A DNA stretch of 64,000 bases, from the IMG/VR virus record IMGVR_UViG_3300045988_036168. One strand, written 5' to 3'. The notes below the pieces were generated by a model, which had not been told where the DNA came from, did no database searches, and was given only the letters and a program-made list of their open reading frames with translations. The stretch comes from a virus. The position numbers and the translations under genes are program-made. Numbering within the stretch: the stretch's first letter is position 1; every line of letters starts with the position of its first letter. This document shows, one piece after another, positions 19,273 to 48,168 of the stretch.

Positions 19273-19548
19273 TCAGAACAGGTCACTGTGGGTTCCAGTT
19301 CTGGACAGCAGCAGCAAAAGCTCCTGCTCCCTGTACTGGTACACCAGCAGCCAATCGGGCGTGATATGGCACTCACGGAAACCGCCGTAATCGCCGGTCA
19401 GGAGGTGGTCTTTGTACTTCTCGTCGAGCTTCATGCCGTTGGCAAGCAATTCGATCACCTCGAAAATAAGCCTCTGGTCGTACCCACGTTTCTGCACCAG
19501 CTTCATATCCTTCTTGAAGCGGGTGGACATCCTCACATCGTACTTCAT
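19273..19548 (-). CDS. yafQ: YafQ/RelE-family type II toxin (mRNA interferase)
   Basis: MKYDVRMSTRFKKDMKLVQKRGYD...YKDHLLTGDYGGFRECHITPDWLLVY...LLLSRTGTHSDLF, a near-textbook YafQ pattern; 4-nt overlap with the antitoxin gene. Confidence 0.85.
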   Translation of the reverse strand: MKYDVRMSTRFKKDMKLVQKRGYDQRLIFEVIELLANGMKLDEKYKDHLLTGDYGGFRECHITPDWLLVYQYREQELLLLLSRTGTHSDLF

Positions 19549-19820
19549 GCCTCCAAAGCCCTCTTCAGGTCTTCCATACTGTGGAAGGTCTCATACTGCT
19601 CAGGGTGGTTTACCATGTCATCAGCTTCCCGCATAGCGGCGATGGTGTCCGCATTGGGAACCTCGCGCTGAATGGAAAACGGGATGCAATTCTCGCGGAT
19701 CGACTGCCGCAGAAAGATGTTGATTGCGGTGGACAGGTCAAGGCCGAAGTCTGCGAACAGAGCTTGAGCCTGTGCTTTCACATCGGCGTCAATGGAAATG
19801 CTGGTTGATACTTTCGCCAT
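19545..19820 (-). CDS. relB: RelB/DinJ-family antitoxin
   Basis: MAKVSTSISIDADVKAQAQALFADFGLDLSTAINIFLRQSIRENCIPFSI ribbon-helix-helix pattern; sits upstream of and overlaps the toxin gene. Confidence 0.85.
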   Translation of the reverse strand: MAKVSTSISIDADVKAQAQALFADFGLDLSTAINIFLRQSIRENCIPFSIQREVPNADTIAAMREADDMVNHPEQYETFHSMEDLKRALEA

Positions 19821-19851: not shown

Positions 19852-19879
19852 ATTATATCATATTATACCTCGAAGTCAA
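19852..19879 (-). promoter_or_regulatory. promoter of the relB-yafQ operon (TTGACT-16 bp-TATAAT)
   Basis: Minus-strand -35 at 19879-19874 and -10 at 19857-19852, ~30 nt upstream of the relB ATG. Confidence 0.55.
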
Positions 19880-19943: not shown

Positions 19944-20216
19944 TCAGTCTTCGGTTTTCAAGGTGCCAACGCACCGCCGAACATCGTTGACGGCGTAGAT
20001 GGCATCCACCACTCGGCAATCTCCAGCCAGACGGTCGAGGTCATCCGACACCTTCCTGATGGCGTCCCAAAGGGCATAGAAGGCATCCGTTGCCATGTCG
20101 GCTCGCGCTCTGTCAGCCGGCGCCACATCCAGCTCCAGATAGGTATTCTCGAAAGCAAACATGATGGCCTCCACCTTTGCGATGTCGAAAATTGCCTCGT
20201 TCAGATTTCTGTTCAT
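19944..20216 (-). CDS. hypothetical protein (90 aa), paralog of 46010..46282
   Basis: ORF track trimmed to MNRNLNEAIF... after GAAGGAG. Shares FENTYLELD / AFYALWDAIRKV...VVDAIYAVNDV with FESTYFYFLD / AFYEIKDRVHAL...VCNAIFAVNFA. Confidence 0.6.
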   Translation of the reverse strand: MNRNLNEAIFDIAKVEAIMFAFENTYLELDVAPADRARADMATDAFYALWDAIRKVSDDLDRLAGDCRVVDAIYAVNDVRRCVGTLKTED

Positions 20217-37620: not shown

Positions 37621-38151
37621 TCAGGCCCCCGCCGGTGCCGTCGGGATGAACCCGCGGATCAGATCCTCGTACAGTCTGCGGTATGTATCACGTTCAGCCT
37701 TTACCGTCGCCAGTTCCAAAGCGGCCTTTGTATCGGTCTCCTTGCTGACGACAGCTTCCCGCTTTTCGACCTGCTGTTCGCGTTCCTTCAGGCGCTCGAT
37801 CAGGCCGGGGTACTTCTTGAGGCCCAGAGCCGTCGCAACCGCGATGTCGATGTCGCGCATCTCCTCCGCCGTACAGCGCCCGATGTAATTGCCGAGCCGT
37901 TCCAGCGATACCGTATTGATCTGCTCACACATGACCGTGCTCGCCCTTCCTGTACTCAGGATCTCAACGTGGGTCGGCAGATTGCTCTTCGGCTGCGTCG
38001 TGCAAAAGGCCACCTGCACGGTTTCGGAGTAGCGGTTCCCTTCGTCACAGGAAACAACCACGCCGGGACGCCCCGTATGTTCCTCGCTTCCGACCTGAAT
38101 GCCGAACTTGTGGACATAGAAGATGTCGCCACGTCTGATGCTGAAGCTCAC
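37621..38151 (-). CDS. MazF/PemK-family toxin domain fused to a ~60-aa C-terminal coiled coil
   Basis: RRGDIFYV...GSEEHTGRPGVVVSCDEGNRYSETVQVAFCTTQPKSNLPTHVEI...STVMCEQINTVSLERL matches the PemK fold pattern; residues ~115-176 are helical and charged. Confidence 0.65.
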   Translation of the reverse strand: MSFSIRRGDIFYVHKFGIQVGSEEHTGRPGVVVSCDEGNRYSETVQVAFCTTQPKSNLPTHVEILSTGRASTVMCEQINTVSLERLGNYIGRCTAEEMRDIDIAVATALGLKKYPGLIERLKEREQQVEKREAVVSKETDTKAALELATVKAERDTYRRLYEDLIRGFIPTAPAGA

Positions 38152-38558
38152 ACTCCATCTCTCCCTTCAAAATATCGGCTTCGCTCTTCCGGTGTAGGCC
38201 AGTCTGGGTCGATGCCACGCTTGCGGCGGTTGCGTCGCCAGCCGTTGTAGACCTTCACATCGCGTTCGTCAATGCTGTACCCGACGCCGCGTTCGGCGCG
38301 GTCGTGGACTAACAGCGGGCGCGGATAGTTCGGGTTCCGCGCCCTCAGAACCTCGTATGCGCCAACAGGCTCTTCGAGCTTCCATCCGCTTTGCTTCAGG
38401 TATGTTTTGAGGTCGGACAACATCCCGTGCCTGACCGTCACTCTGTTCTTCATCTGCTCCTCCATTTCCTGCTTCCGGTAAAACCGCTCTCGGTCGAGGA
38501 AGCCTTTCGTGGCGTAGTATTCGCCAGCATCCATGCCGCAAAAATCAGCCTCGCTCAT
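38148..38558 (-). CDS. hypothetical protein (136 aa) translationally coupled to the MazF-like gene
   Basis: ORF track; stop overlaps the MazF-like start (ATGA); no antitoxin fold recognised. Confidence 0.55.
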   Translation of the reverse strand: MSEADFCGMDAGEYYATKGFLDRERFYRKQEMEEQMKNRVTVRHGMLSDLKTYLKQSGWKLEEPVGAYEVLRARNPNYPRPLLVHDRAERGVGYSIDERDVKVYNGWRRNRRKRGIDPDWPTPEERSRYFEGRDGV

Positions 38559-45323: not shown

Positions 45324-45379
45324 ATTAGCCGGTTGGTTAATTTGTAACTTTATTATACTGCGATACCTACCTATGTCAA
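45324..45379 (-). promoter_or_regulatory. promoter cassette C: TTGACA-16 bp-TATAAT plus downstream 18-bp operator variant
   Basis: Minus-strand -35 at 45379-45374 and -10 at 45357-45352; operator ATTAGCCG-GT-TGGTTAAT at 45324-45341, 10 bp past the -10. Confidence 0.65.
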
Positions 45380-45485: not shown

Positions 45486-46013
45486 TCACGCTTCTGCGGT
45501 CACTATGTACTTTTTGAGCTCAAGCAGCTCCAACAAAATCGCGTCGATTCGCCGGTTGATGGCGTCGCTTCCAGCTTTAGGGGGAGGTGTCGGCTTCTCG
45601 GGGACAGCTACCTGCGTCGGTGCTGGCAGCTCCGTCGGCGTCTGCTCGTCTGGCTTTCCCAGCTTACAGGCGAACACCTTGCCCTCGATCCATGCCCTCG
45701 TTTCCTTGCTGCATCCGAAGATGTCCAAAATCATCCGCCCGCAGCGTTCGGTCACGAAGTACATCGGCACAGACCGGCGGGATGCGCCACCCGTCTTCCC
45801 GTTGACCGGAAAAGGCAGTTTCACCAGCTTCACGTCGCTCTCGCTCTTTGCTTCGCGCTGGCACCACTTGGTCGGATAGGCGCAGCCACAGGCGGCCAGC
45901 AGATCCCGTGCCGCATACATCGTCTCGCCTTCGTTCAGGAGAACGCGGACTGCGCTTCCCTCCTGCTCCACAACGGCTACTCTGCCAATGAAGCTCTTGA
46001 CGGTCTCGCTCAT
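45486..46013 (-). CDS. hypothetical protein, possibly Bro-N/KilA-N-like (antirepressor-family) DNA-binding domain
   Basis: AVRVLLNEGETMYAARDLLAACGCAYPTKW...MYFVTERCGRMILDIFGCSKETRAWIEGKVF loosely follows the Bro-N/P22-Ant N-terminal pattern; Pro-rich linker and short C-terminal helix. Confidence 0.35.
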   Translation of the reverse strand: MSETVKSFIGRVAVVEQEGSAVRVLLNEGETMYAARDLLAACGCAYPTKWCQREAKSESDVKLVKLPFPVNGKTGGASRRSVPMYFVTERCGRMILDIFGCSKETRAWIEGKVFACKLGKPDEQTPTELPAPTQVAVPEKPTPPPKAGSDAINRRIDAILLELLELKKYIVTAEA

Positions 46014-46282
46014 ACCGCACCGCCTTTCTCCGCTTCACGGTTCGCAAAGTTCACCGCGAAGATGGCGTTGCAGACCTCCATGTGGCCGGCGAACTCTTCC
46101 ATCTCACCCATCAGCGCGTGAACTCTGTCCTTGATCTCGTAGAAGGCCAAGGCGCCTCTGTCCCTCTTCTCTGCCTCTCCCTCGGCCATGTCGAGGAAGT
46201 AGAAGTAGGTGGACTCGAACATCTCCAGAAATACATCCAGCTTTGCCGCGTCCGCTCTCAATTTGTCGGGGGTCGTCATCAT
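46010..46282 (-). CDS. hypothetical protein (90 aa), paralog of 19944..20216
   Basis: ORF track; GAAAGGAG RBS; preceded by a ~150-nt structured leader. Confidence 0.6.
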   Translation of the reverse strand: MMTTPDKLRADAAKLDVFLEMFESTYFYFLDMAEGEAEKRDRGALAFYEIKDRVHALMGEMEEFAGHMEVCNAIFAVNFANREAEKGGAV

Positions 46283-46307
46283 AAGTGTATTGCTCCTTTC
46301 GTCGTTC

Positions 46308-46336
46308 TTGACAGCGGCCGGCAGCCATGTTACACT
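46308..46336 (+). promoter_or_regulatory. plus-strand promoter TTGACA-17 bp-TACACT with extended TG, inside the leader of the minus-strand operon
   Basis: -35 at 46308-46313 and -10 at 46331-46336, preceded by TGT. Confidence 0.45.
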
Positions 46337-46342
46337 TACCTT

Positions 46343-46427
46343 GCTCAGAGGTGTGTAACGCAGTCACAGGTGGCTGCCGAACCGCCGGAACCCTTGGTGT
46401 TGCAAGCACTGAGGGTTCTTTTTTGTT
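46343..46427 (+). ncRNA. candidate ~85-nt cis-antisense RNA opposite the 5' leader of 46010..46282
   Basis: Starts ~7 nt after the plus-strand -10. Ends at the 7-bp hairpin GAACCCT/AGGGTTC (46388-46394 / 46412-46418) followed by TTTTTTGTTT. No plus-strand ORF with an RBS. Confidence 0.4.
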
Positions 46428-46439
46428 TCCTGTGATTTG

Positions 46440-46467
46440 ATTATAACATTTTACCTACCTAAAGCAA
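46440..46467 (-). promoter_or_regulatory. promoter E: TTGCTT-16 bp-TATAAT sharing the cassette spacer TAGGTAGGTAA
   Basis: Minus-strand -35 at 46467-46462 and -10 at 46445-46440; the spacer is homologous to cassettes A-D but there is no downstream operator. Confidence 0.5.
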
Positions 46468-46488
46468 GATAGGTGCGCGGTAATAACA

Positions 46489-46506
46489 TTTAACCGTTCG
46501 GATAAC
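46489..46506. promoter_or_regulatory. operator-like site TTTAACCG-TT-CGGATAAC upstream of promoter E
   Basis: Fits the 18-bp operator consensus with mismatches at the two outermost positions; lies ~22 bp upstream of the promoter E -35. Confidence 0.4.
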
Positions 46507-46577: not shown

Positions 46578-46931
46578 CTATCTCTCTTTCAGAATGACCC
46601 CGGCCATCTCCGCAAGCATCTCAATCTGGGACGGTGTCGGATCGGACTCAGAAAAAATTTTTTGAATTTTTTCGGCCTCCGTGCCTTCCACGAGGTCTGG
46701 CAGGATATAATTCGGTGAAACTCGTAATTCGCGGCATAAAGTGGCGAATACCGGCAGGCTCGGCAACTTCTTTCCGCCCTCAATCTGGCGCAGATACGTC
46801 GAATTGATGTTGCAAGCCTCTGCCAGCTTCTCAGCCGTCAGGCCGCGGTCTTTTCGGGCTTTGTTGATTCTCGTTCCAAATAGCTTCTTGTCCACTTTTT
46901 GCTCCTCCAATAATGTATGCCGTCGGTTCAT
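46578..46931 (-). CDS. XRE-family HTH regulator divergent from the nuclease gene
   Basis: ORF track 46578..46946 trimmed to MNRRHTLLEEQ... after AGAGGTGG. HTH segment: LFGTRINKARKDRGLTAEKLAEACNINSTYLRQIEGGKKLPSLPVFATLCREL. Confidence 0.7.
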   Translation of the reverse strand: MNRRHTLLEEQKVDKKLFGTRINKARKDRGLTAEKLAEACNINSTYLRQIEGGKKLPSLPVFATLCRELRVSPNYILPDLVEGTEAEKIQKIFSESDPTPSQIEMLAEMAGVILKER

Positions 46932-46960
46932 ACCACCTCTTCTCATAGCTTACAGCCCCG

Positions 46961-46989
46961 TTGACGCTCACGAAATCCACTGTTAGAAT
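46961..46989 (+). promoter_or_regulatory. promoter of the nuclease gene: TTGACG-17 bp-TGT-TAGAAT (extended -10)
   Basis: -35 at 46961-46966 and -10 at 46984-46989 with TG at -15/-14. A divergent minus-strand TGG-TATAGT element for the HTH gene lies in the same 90-bp gap. Confidence 0.55.
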
Positions 46990-47037: not shown

Positions 47038-48123
47038 ATGGGTCTTTCAGGGTCTAAACTCTACCGCCTTTCCGGTGGCACCGTCATCCCGGCCAGCGAG
47101 GCTCTATATCCCGCAGAGGCCGATCTTCAGCAGCTTATTGCAGAAAATCCGCAACTGCTGCTCAGCTCCCCCAATGAGGGCCAGCGCCTTTACCTGTTGC
47201 GTCGAGAACAGCCCGTGCGCGATGCTCCAGATGGGCCAGCCCTTTTCTCCATTGACCATCTCTTCATTGACCAAGACGGTCTTCCCGTGCTCGTCGAGGT
47301 GAAGCGGAGCACCGACACCAGAATCCGCCGCGAGGTCGTAGGCCAGATGCTCGACTACGCCTCCCGTATGCGGGCGTGGAGCGCCAGCGAACTCAGGTCG
47401 TCCGCGTCGCTTCTGGATGTTCCAGATGATCTATGGGCCGCTCTCGACGGCAATCTGAAGGCCGAGCGGATGCGGCTGATTTTCGCGGCAGACTCTATCC
47501 CTGGCTCCTTGGCCTCCATGATCGACTTCCTCGACCGCAGCATGGACGCTATCGAGGTCTGCGGCGTCGAGATTAAGCGGTACGTTTCCGAGGACGGTGC
47601 CGAGCTGATCTCCTCCACGATTGTCGGCGGTGGCAATTCGCCTGTCAAGCGGGCTGCCAGATACTCCACTATCTGGGACGCCGACAGCATGGCCGAGCAG
47701 CTCAACCAGCGCGAAAACTCAGCCATCGTTCCGGTTGTCGCCGCTCTCACATCGTTCGCCTCCAGCGCCGGTCTGCAGATCAGTTATGGCCGCGGGACGA
47801 AGTTTGGCGTGTGCAGGGCGCTTCGGAACGGCCGCAAGGTATTTAGTGTGACCTCGTGGGAAAAGGGCCATACGGGTCTCAGGACAGCCGTTGAGGTATC
47901 TTTACCGTCGTTGGTAGACCAGACCTGCGGCACGTTCGAGGAAGGTGCGCTACGCTCCATGCTCCTGACGTTCCCCGACGCTTCCCCAGCCGACGCCGAG
48001 CAATTCATCTTCGGCTCCAGCCAGTTCCAGTATATCGACCTGCGATTACTTGCAGAGCCATCAAACCTCTCGCATTTCCAGAACGCCATCACTCAAATCG
48101 TTCAGGCCATCCCTGAAGAATAA
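47038..48123 (+). CDS. NucS/DUF91-like PD-(D/E)xK nuclease-domain protein with unknown ~165-aa C-terminal domain
   Basis: SIDHLFIDQDGLPVLVEVKRSTDTRIRREVVGQMLDYA gives D73...E87-x-K89...Q103...Y107, as in NucS-type nucleases. ACGGAGGAT RBS. It is the only substantial plus-strand gene in 40 kb of minus-strand genes. Confidence 0.6.
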   Translation: MGLSGSKLYRLSGGTVIPASEALYPAEADLQQLIAENPQLLLSSPNEGQRLYLLRREQPVRDAPDGPALFSIDHLFIDQDGLPVLVEVKRSTDTRIRREVVGQMLDYASRMRAWSASELRSSASLLDVPDDLWAALDGNLKAERMRLIFAADSIPGSLASMIDFLDRSMDAIEVCGVEIKRYVSEDGAELISSTIVGGGNSPVKRAARYSTIWDADSMAEQLNQRENSAIVPVVAALTSFASSAGLQISYGRGTKFGVCRALRNGRKVFSVTSWEKGHTGLRTAVEVSLPSLVDQTCGTFEEGALRSMLLTFPDASPADAEQFIFGSSQFQYIDLRLLAEPSNLSHFQNAITQIVQAIPEE

Positions 48124-48127
48124 GAAA

Positions 48128-48168
48128 AGCGGCTACGCCCCGAAATGGAGCATAGCCGCTATTTTACT
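48128..48168. terminator. bidirectional terminator between the convergent nuclease and GIY-YIG genes
   Basis: 8-bp stem AGCGGCTA/TAGCCGCT (48128-48135 / 48153-48160); ATTTTACT after it on plus and TTTTCTTATTC after it on minus. Confidence 0.55.

Follow-up and report, generated by a model that had tools for sequence, protein, structure and literature searches.

Within a 64,000-nucleotide stretch of viral DNA (IMG/VR virus record IMGVR_UViG_3300045988_036168, hereafter the window), the plus strand at positions 46343-46428 carries a predicted small RNA (sRNA) of about 85 nucleotides (nt), antisense to the 5′ leader of a minus-strand operon that encodes two proteins of 90 and 175 amino acids (aa). 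We consider it rather better than an even bet that a discrete cis-antisense sRNA is made here and represses the operon, and we would give a probability of roughly 0.6 to the whole explanation, in which the RNA would act by transcriptional interference together with duplex-triggered decay of the messenger RNA (mRNA). The core idea, an antisense RNA from a leader promoter convergent with the promoter of the operon, had been put forward in an earlier reading of this DNA from its letters alone (the sequence-only reading). It has gained strong comparative support from six related lineages, in which the promoter hexamers, their spacing, a purine at the predicted start, a U-tract, a covarying two-hairpin fold and an asymmetry of G·U pairs between the strands have all been kept.

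Promoter, terminator and fold

All the sequence elements listed in the sequence-only reading were found where it had placed them. The predicted antisense promoter (10/12 plus an extended −10 in a promoter scan) sits within the minus-strand 5′ leader, 51 nt upstream of an intrinsic terminator whose hairpin (46387-46419) has the core GAACCCT/AGGGTTC, can form up to 15 pairs and is followed by TTTTTTGTTT up to 46429. The plus strand is almost wholly non-coding over the 64 kb, and the scans returned from it two promoter-like sites scoring at least 10/12, this one and the promoter of the gene at 47038-48123 (both with a 17-nt spacer and the TG), and a single strong terminator-like site, the one at 46387-46429. 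Such an arrangement of promoter and terminator is far from chance. The start was placed at the seventh base after the −10, and from there the RNA would consist of a short single-stranded 5′ tail, a first stem-loop (SL1) and the terminator stem-loop. The parts of the antisense unit are the following:

46308-46313, plus strand: −35 of the antisense promoter, TTGACA (promoter scan)
46328-46336, plus strand: extended −10 of the antisense promoter, TGT-TACACT, 17 nt after the −35 (TG at 46328-29, TACACT at 46331-46336)
46343-46428, plus strand: predicted antisense RNA, ~83-86 nt, with its presumed start at G 46343 and its 3′ end within the U-tract
46350-46386, plus strand: SL1, outer helix GGUG/CGCC and inner helix GCAGUCA/UGGCUGC (folds)
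46387-46429, plus strand: intrinsic terminator, hairpin of 12-15 bp followed by UUUUUUGUUU (terminator scan)

Folding of both RNAs had been proposed, and both turned out to be structured, with z = −2.35 for the sense leader and z = −3.0 for the antisense RNA, whose minimum free energy is −36.8 kcal/mol. Compared with 4,261 segments of 86 nt, the plus-strand fold energy of 46343-46428 falls in the top 0.75%, and its excess over the complementary strand, −13.7 kcal/mol, in the top 0.4%. The claim that no plus-strand open reading frame (ORF) explains the unit was borne out: the sole overlapping ORF (46327-46440) starts upstream of the predicted RNA start and reads through the terminator, no ORF with a Shine-Dalgarno sequence (SD) starts inside 46343-46428, and the lengths of the antisense unit differ between lineages by non-multiples of 3. 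Three sequence-level marks of a cis-encoded antisense sRNA (a promoter of its own on the opposite strand, an intrinsic terminator and a lack of coding capacity) can be recognised in the predicted unit. Nothing in the whole window reached the gathering score of an Rfam 15 family, and at E ≤ 10 there were chance-level matches to unrelated families only. No curated covariance model of a known riboswitch or cis-regulatory leader matched, and ARAGORN found no relevant tRNA in the window.

The transcription unit that the RNA would oppose has these features:

46440-46467, minus strand: sense promoter TTGCTT-16-TGT-TATAAT (−35 at 46467->46462, TG at 46448-47, −10 at 46445->46440)
46283-46433, minus strand: structured 5′ leader of the 90-aa/175-aa operon, ~150 nt, complementary to the antisense RNA from +6 to +91 (fold)
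46293->46290, minus strand: SD GGAG (AAAGGAG at 46296->46290), with the AUG at 46282-46280, both outside the antisense overlap
46010-46282, minus strand: first operon gene, 90 aa, an acidic two-helix hairpin
45486-46013, minus strand: second operon gene, 175 aa, remote Bro-N-like, with an ATGA overlap with the first gene
45483->45453, minus strand: strong operon terminator (terminator scan)

The sense promoter was missed by the promoter scan because its −35 matches at 3/6 positions only. It persists in distant relatives with short or unrelated leaders, and so does a TAGGTAGGTA-like spacer. The nested stems reported for the leader, GGCAGCC/GGCTGCC (46320-26/46372-78) and GTTACAC/GTGTAAC (46329-35/46353-59), proved exact. 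The first of them, a long-range helix, shows a compensatory change from CG to UA in 5 of 13 sequences, and this covariation indicates that the sense RNA is structured as well as the antisense RNA. Both the long-range helix and the GUUACAC/GUGUAAC hairpin lie partly outside the antisense RNA, and the 3′ arm of the hairpin is the complement of the antisense −10.

Conservation and the strand under structural selection

Homologous loci were collected by a protein-profile search of viral, genome and metagenome collections. Six lineages had a long leader (the window group, L043/83/84, L080-82, L045, L056 and L055), and their 90-aa proteins are 59-65% identical. In each of the 22 distinct long-leader sequences the antisense strand carries TTGAC[AG]-17-TGnTA[CT]ACT, then 60-90 nt, a hairpin and a T-run; the −35 is either TTGACA or TTGACG, the −10 is TA[CT]ACT, the spacer is always 17 nt and the TG is always present. 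Among five lineage representatives the invariant positions were 5/6 in the −35, 5/6 in the −10 and 2/2 in the TG, a level comparable to that of the SD (6/7), against 39% of all leader columns and 0/6, 2/8 and 1/10 in the linkers next to the hexamers. Every lineage has a purine, with pyrimidines on both sides, as the seventh base after the −10.

These data bear directly on the view that the plus-strand terminator is a mere insulator against stray antisense transcription and that the promoter-like site is silent or irrelevant. The terminator does immediately precede the sense promoter, and plus-strand read-through would otherwise enter the neighbouring regulator gene, of the helix-turn-helix (HTH) type, in antisense. 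Yet the conserved promoter, the start purine and SL1 would all be left unexplained, and there is no other plus-strand promoter of at least 10/12 upstream within 46 kb from which stray transcripts might come, so we regard an insulator as very improbable.

A covariance model of 81 positions was built from the alignment. It matched exactly once in each long-leader locus, always antisense to the 90-aa gene, and gave no match in relatives with short or absent leaders nor at the paralog of the 90-aa gene (19944-20216). The sequence-only reading had held that this paralog lacks the arrangement, and both parts of the statement agree with what we found, since the paralog is real (28% identity) and the element was not detected there. 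A pattern scan of IMG/VR with the promoter core recovered the same phage family and one unrelated contig (L115), in which positions 749-777 match the antisense promoter core over 29 nt, including the GCAGC spacer. This match was judged to be chance, as the site there is the ordinary promoter of a small membrane-protein gene.

The same two-hairpin architecture was recovered, in antisense orientation, in the lineage representatives folded (11-17 sequences). In six of these representatives the antisense fold energies ranged from −33.6 to −40.5 kcal/mol (z −3.0 to −5.3), and those of the complementary sense segment were about −23 to −26 kcal/mol (z −0.65 to −3.6), i.e., weaker by 11-16 kcal/mol. 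Other variants of the sense segment reached up to −36.6 kcal/mol, and in most sequences the deficit was ~10 kcal/mol. The difference in energy between the strands arises because the 2-6 G·U pairs of each antisense fold turn into C·A mismatches on the gene strand. In the 12-bp core of the terminator 98.2% of 168 cells were paired (14 sequences); 21 cells were G·U, falling at five pair positions that vary with the lineage, whereas a single unpaired cell would become G·U if the core were read in the sense orientation. SL1 has an inner helix that differs by lineage (GCAGUCA/UGGCUGC, UCGCAG/CUGCGG, UCACGG/CCGUGA or CCGUU/AACGG), and the support for SL1 comes from per-sequence folds and not from column statistics, because MAFFT could not align SL1 structurally. 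Population variants of the window lineage turned G·U into Watson-Crick pairs, enlarged the loops or fell in the 5′ tail. Both strands are structured, but given that the G·U pairs would be C·A on the gene strand, the segment from promoter to terminator is selected on the antisense strand.

The strand asymmetry is also what separates this reading from one in which only the sense leader is functional, as a 5′ untranslated region that acts as an mRNA stabiliser, a protein-binding site or a riboregulator of undefined kind. The promoter and terminator likeness of the plus strand would then be a by-product of the leader hairpins and of the A-rich 5′ end. Under such a structural constraint covariation would be allowed, whereas both hexamers, the TG and the spacing of 17 nt have been kept literally. 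In the sense RNA the G·U pairs of the hairpins would turn into C·A mismatches, and the sense segment is weaker by the margin given above. The conserved A-run forms the U-tract of the opposite strand, but no role for it in the sense RNA suggests itself. On the other hand, the leader does have a covarying long-range helix and a z of −2.35, the complement of the −10 makes up the 3′ arm of the sense hairpin, that of the −35 is paired within the outer helix, and distant relatives also have a 5′ hairpin, in a shorter leader. We give the sense leader alone an outside chance.

Geometry and proposed mode of repression

The predicted promoter, terminator and fold, their strand asymmetry and conservation, and the geometry of the locus, all drawn from the sequence and its comparison, are the grounds on which we infer the synthesis of the RNA, its repressive action and the two ways in which it would act. 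The sense and antisense promoters are convergent, with start sites ~90 bp apart, and the antisense RNA is complementary to the sense leader from +6 to +91, the overlap ending at 46343. Its U-tract ends ~5 nt from the sense start (~46433), so that two transcription complexes must collide or occlude each other. Since the antisense RNA would start (~46343) within the loop of the sense hairpin, its 5′ tail is complementary to bases exposed there, the classical nucleation arrangement for antisense pairing.

We propose that the near-consensus promoter of sigma-A type at 46308-46336 would drive the antisense RNA and that the 90-aa/175-aa operon would come under two layers of negative control, transcriptional interference and RNA pairing. 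As to interference, a polymerase finishing the antisense RNA would meet the footprint of the open complex at the sense promoter and, in the other direction, sense transcription would pass over the antisense promoter. As to pairing, it would nucleate at the GUUACAC...GUGUAAC loop and spread to a duplex of ~85 bp over sense +6 to +91, which would remove the sense 5′ hairpin, open the long-range helix and probably expose the mRNA to cleavage by RNase III and to decay in the 5′->3′ direction. The operon would thereby acquire a threshold: leaky transcription from the HTH-controlled sense promoter would be kept silent, and strong induction would prevail over the antisense promoter. The two layers are modelled on the established behaviour of convergent promoters and of antisense duplexes (PMC5001618, PMC3181467).

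Several points weigh against this explanation. The functions of promoter and terminator are predictions, and the complements of the antisense −10 and −35 also lie in helices of the sense RNA, so that sense structure could account for part of their conservation. The terminator stem has just one double-sided compensatory pair, and the pair counts are not independent events because the six lineages are related. The element is dispensable for the module, since close relatives with short leaders do without it. The antisense RNA reaches neither the SD nor the AUG, stopping ~47 nt before the SD. When the sense mRNA was folded with the antisense target forced single-stranded (9 lineage representatives), the accessibility of the SD-AUG region was unchanged in the window (0.69 vs 0.67) and showed no consistent change in relatives, and for this reason the repressive step is not evident from the sequence. 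Finally, the terminator scan found no minus-strand terminator-like site in the leader (46283-46433).

Two other modes of action were considered and rejected. Occlusion of the ribosome-binding site (RBS) was discarded as the main mechanism for the window, as there is no overlap with SD or AUG and the modelled accessibility is unchanged. Attenuation was discarded because the sense leader has no terminator and the constrained folds were without a hairpin plus U-run. Nor does the locus fit a type I toxin-antitoxin system, whose target would encode a small hydrophobic toxic peptide; the targets here are an acidic, soluble helical hairpin of 90 aa and a Bro-N-like protein of 175 aa.

A second possible pairing site was observed in some of the relatives. 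In L043/L083, L045, L056 and L055 (about 2350-2520 or 1350-1520 in locus coordinates) codons 2-6 of the 90-aa gene offer the conserved antisense 5′ tail AUCUGGUGUG a further complementary stretch, which in L045 and L055 is extended by pairing of neighbouring tail bases with the SD. The duplexes in these lineages have energies of −21.6 to −26.7 kcal/mol, compared with about −13 ± 3 kcal/mol for shuffled tails, of which at most 0.8% were as good. In the window lineage the second site gave −12.5 versus −11.0 ± 3.0 kcal/mol (28% of shuffles as good), and in L080/L081 it was not beyond chance either (9-14% of shuffles as good). The comparison suggests dual-site pairing in L043/L083, L045, L056 and L055.

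It is from this site that a further alternative takes its strength, namely that the sRNA is real and has its main role in trans or at a second site (the region where translation of the 90-aa gene initiates, or mRNAs of host or phage), with pairing to the leader being incidental. Besides the duplexes that exceed shuffled tails, the tail itself has been conserved among those lineages, though complementarity in cis alone imposes no constraint upon it. The lack of this pairing in the window lineage and in L080/L081 argues against it, as do the complementarities that BLAST-short found elsewhere in the 64-kb window, which were chance 9-10-mers only, and the covariance model, with its one copy in the window. 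We hold a main role away from the leader to be improbable, a shade more so than a functional sense leader alone but clearly less so than an insulator.

The opposed genes, their phage and known systems

The 90-aa protein yielded an AlphaFold2 (AF2) model of two long helices (pLDDT 89). The fold search returned only generic helical hairpins, WXG100-like and non-significant (E > 0.2), and the protein had no match in the family databases searched. The 175-aa gene is translationally coupled to it by the ATGA overlap. Its product belongs to phrog_34000, a group without assigned function, had no match in Pfam, NCBIfam or PADLOC, and gave empty profile searches of the PDB; its AF2 model was too poor (pLDDT 51) to be used for a fold search. 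The sequence-only reading had ascribed loose Bro-N/Ant-like features to this protein. Neither the protein itself nor 17 close homologues matched Bro-N (PF02498), even at E ≤ 10. However, a library-wide profile search found 77 relatives, and of the 63 scanned 33 had weak Bro-N matches (best E 8e-5), which makes Bro-N-like a reasonable remote assignment. That the protein is an antirepressor is speculative.

Upstream of the operon lie the following features:

46476-46505, minus strand: operator-like repeats TTATCCGAACGGTTAA (46505->46490) and TTATTACCG (46486->46478), upstream of the sense −35
46542->46529, minus strand: terminator of the HTH gene
46578-46895, minus strand: XRE-family HTH gene, 105 aa from GTG 46895 (Pfam HTH_3/HTH_19; public gene calls)

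The HTH protein has a weak match to RstR-family repressors and is a probable regulator of the sense promoter. Motifs of the type TTA[AT]CCG or TTACC occur at equivalent positions in relatives, and in L048, L051 and L057 the sense −35 is preceded by TTACC/TTAACCG repeats or palindromes. The repeats in the window are probable operators of the adjacent XRE protein, which would bind them. No LexA (Cheo) box was seen by eye at the sense promoter. The mechanical ORF 46578-46946 of the minus strand would encode 122 aa from ATG 46946; the true start is probably GTG 46895, which is preceded by a GGAGGAG Shine-Dalgarno and is the start chosen in public gene calls.

The window is a phage or prophage of Oscillospiraceae, with genes for an endolysin, RecT, RtcB and several DNA methyltransferases. 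Near-identical contigs are present in IMG/VR, and another copy is found in the complete genome of Clostridiales bacterium CCNA10 (AP018533, prophage near 1.753-1.758 Mb), a cultured lysogen. The exact 90-aa protein was indexed in ~11,500 blocks of public assemblies, indicating that the phage is very common. Searches of phage and plasmid DNA gave only a short match, in a neighbouring gene, to Faecalibacterium phage FP_Brigit. The gene order HTH, 90 aa, 175 aa has been kept in nearly all the relatives checked. The gene strand (minus) has four perfect 12/12 promoters TTGACA-16/17-TATAAT (45352-45379, 36410, 15412 and 58842), and as the one at 45379 comes directly after the terminator 45483-45453, the 90-aa/175-aa pair forms an insulated transcription unit.

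Other genes of the window can be mentioned briefly. The sole plus-strand gene in the 64 kb (47038-48123, 361 aa) has a near-consensus, TG-extended promoter with a 17-nt spacer (46961-46989, plus) and has been kept, divergent from the HTH gene, in long-leader relatives. Its product matches the PADLOC candidate defence family PDC-S11 (E 1.9e-9), with a weak likeness to nucleases of NucS/SduA type, and it is possibly a prophage-encoded defence or moron gene. Just past its stop there is a minus-strand terminator-like hairpin (48128-48160) that may act bidirectionally between the convergent genes. A RelB antitoxin/YafQ-ParE toxin pair (Pfam E 5e-11 and 3e-33) is encoded at 19273-19820 on the minus strand. 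It directly follows the 90-aa paralog (19944-20216) and is preceded by a TG-extended promoter (11/12) near 19879. A protein with a PemK/MazF-like toxin domain (37621-38151, minus; Pfam E 1e-21) lies inside the early-gene array, and the 136-aa ORF upstream of it (38148-38558), without family match, could be its antitoxin.

The sequence-only reading had likened the layout to the control of ant by sar in phage P22, where the target of the antisense RNA includes the ribosome-binding region of ant. The likeness holds for the logic, a repressor-controlled promoter set against a convergent antisense RNA, and not for the detail. As described for immI in PMC2629481 and PMC13397905, ant is controlled by the Mnt and Arc repressors and by sar antisense RNA, and sar blocks Ant translation by base-pairing with ant mRNA (PMC13397905); the primary work cited there is that of Liao et al. 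(1987) and Schaefer & McClure (1997). The two systems share a small, hairpin-rich antisense RNA that ends in a terminator, with its promoter inside the transcription unit of the regulatory gene and convergent with a repressor-controlled promoter, and a target that is here of possible antirepressor-type ancestry; the RNA of the window would differ in covering the leader from +6 to +91 and not the RBS or start codon. There is no similarity in sequence or structure and no Rfam match, the host is a Gram-positive member of the Clostridia, and the targets are not Ant homologues, having no P22_AR_N or ANT domain and remote Bro-N signals only. The antisense RNA is not homologous to sar and resembles it in logic only.

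Closer to the host is the prgQ/prgX system of plasmid pCF10, also from a Firmicute, where one operon is held down jointly by a repressor of HTH type and a small antisense RNA (PMC3181467). Its promoters are convergent, a design associated with switch-like behaviour, and Anti-Q is processed from a longer prgX transcript and favours a terminator in the nascent prgQ leader. The RNA described here has a terminator of its own, opposes a sense leader without attenuator, is not part of an opposing protein-coding operon and has no homology to it. In Enterococcus faecalis, the host of pCF10, the RNA duplexes of this system are substrates of RNase III (PMC3181467). The layout of a small HTH repressor gene, a promoter and a long structured leader with a convergent promoter for an antisense RNA of ~100 nt, followed by the regulated gene, is likewise that of pIP501 (RNAIII, CopR) and pT181. 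These replicons control their rep genes by antisense-RNA transcription attenuation, and the RNA-induced terminator upstream of the RBS on which they depend was not found here, in what is a phage and not a plasmid replicon. Among phages, OOP of lambda and P22 and the promoters of coliphage 186 are alike in that short antisense transcripts or convergent promoters set the thresholds of developmental switches, for which there is a theory of convergent-promoter interference (PMC5001618). However, OOP overlaps the 3′ end of cII, whereas the RNA of the window overlaps a 5′ leader, and the pR/pL pair of phage 186 works without a dedicated, terminated sRNA.

Taken together, the comparison provides good support for the element as a candidate new family of cis-antisense sRNAs in phages of gut Oscillospiraceae. 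It has no entry in Rfam, and the mode of gene silencing would be one familiar from phages, with no new principle involved; the 81-position covariance model could serve to annotate it in gut viromes. More tentatively, and with considerable doubt, HTH repressor, leader and antisense RNA might form an "immunity" switch of a prophage family that ranks among the most prevalent in human-gut Oscillospiraceae, an independent equivalent of P22 immI in which the RNA would set the threshold for a Bro-N-type antirepressor and hence for induction, with a dual-site action in several lineages, where the cis duplex would be joined by a trans-like clamp of SD and first codons on the same mRNA. To our knowledge, very little has been learned so far about regulatory RNAs in the phages of strictly anaerobic gut Clostridia. 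Should the RNA be real, it would provide a clean natural case of convergent promoters in which the terminator of an sRNA abuts the opposing start site, and a compact handle on how such prophages silence a regulatory operon.

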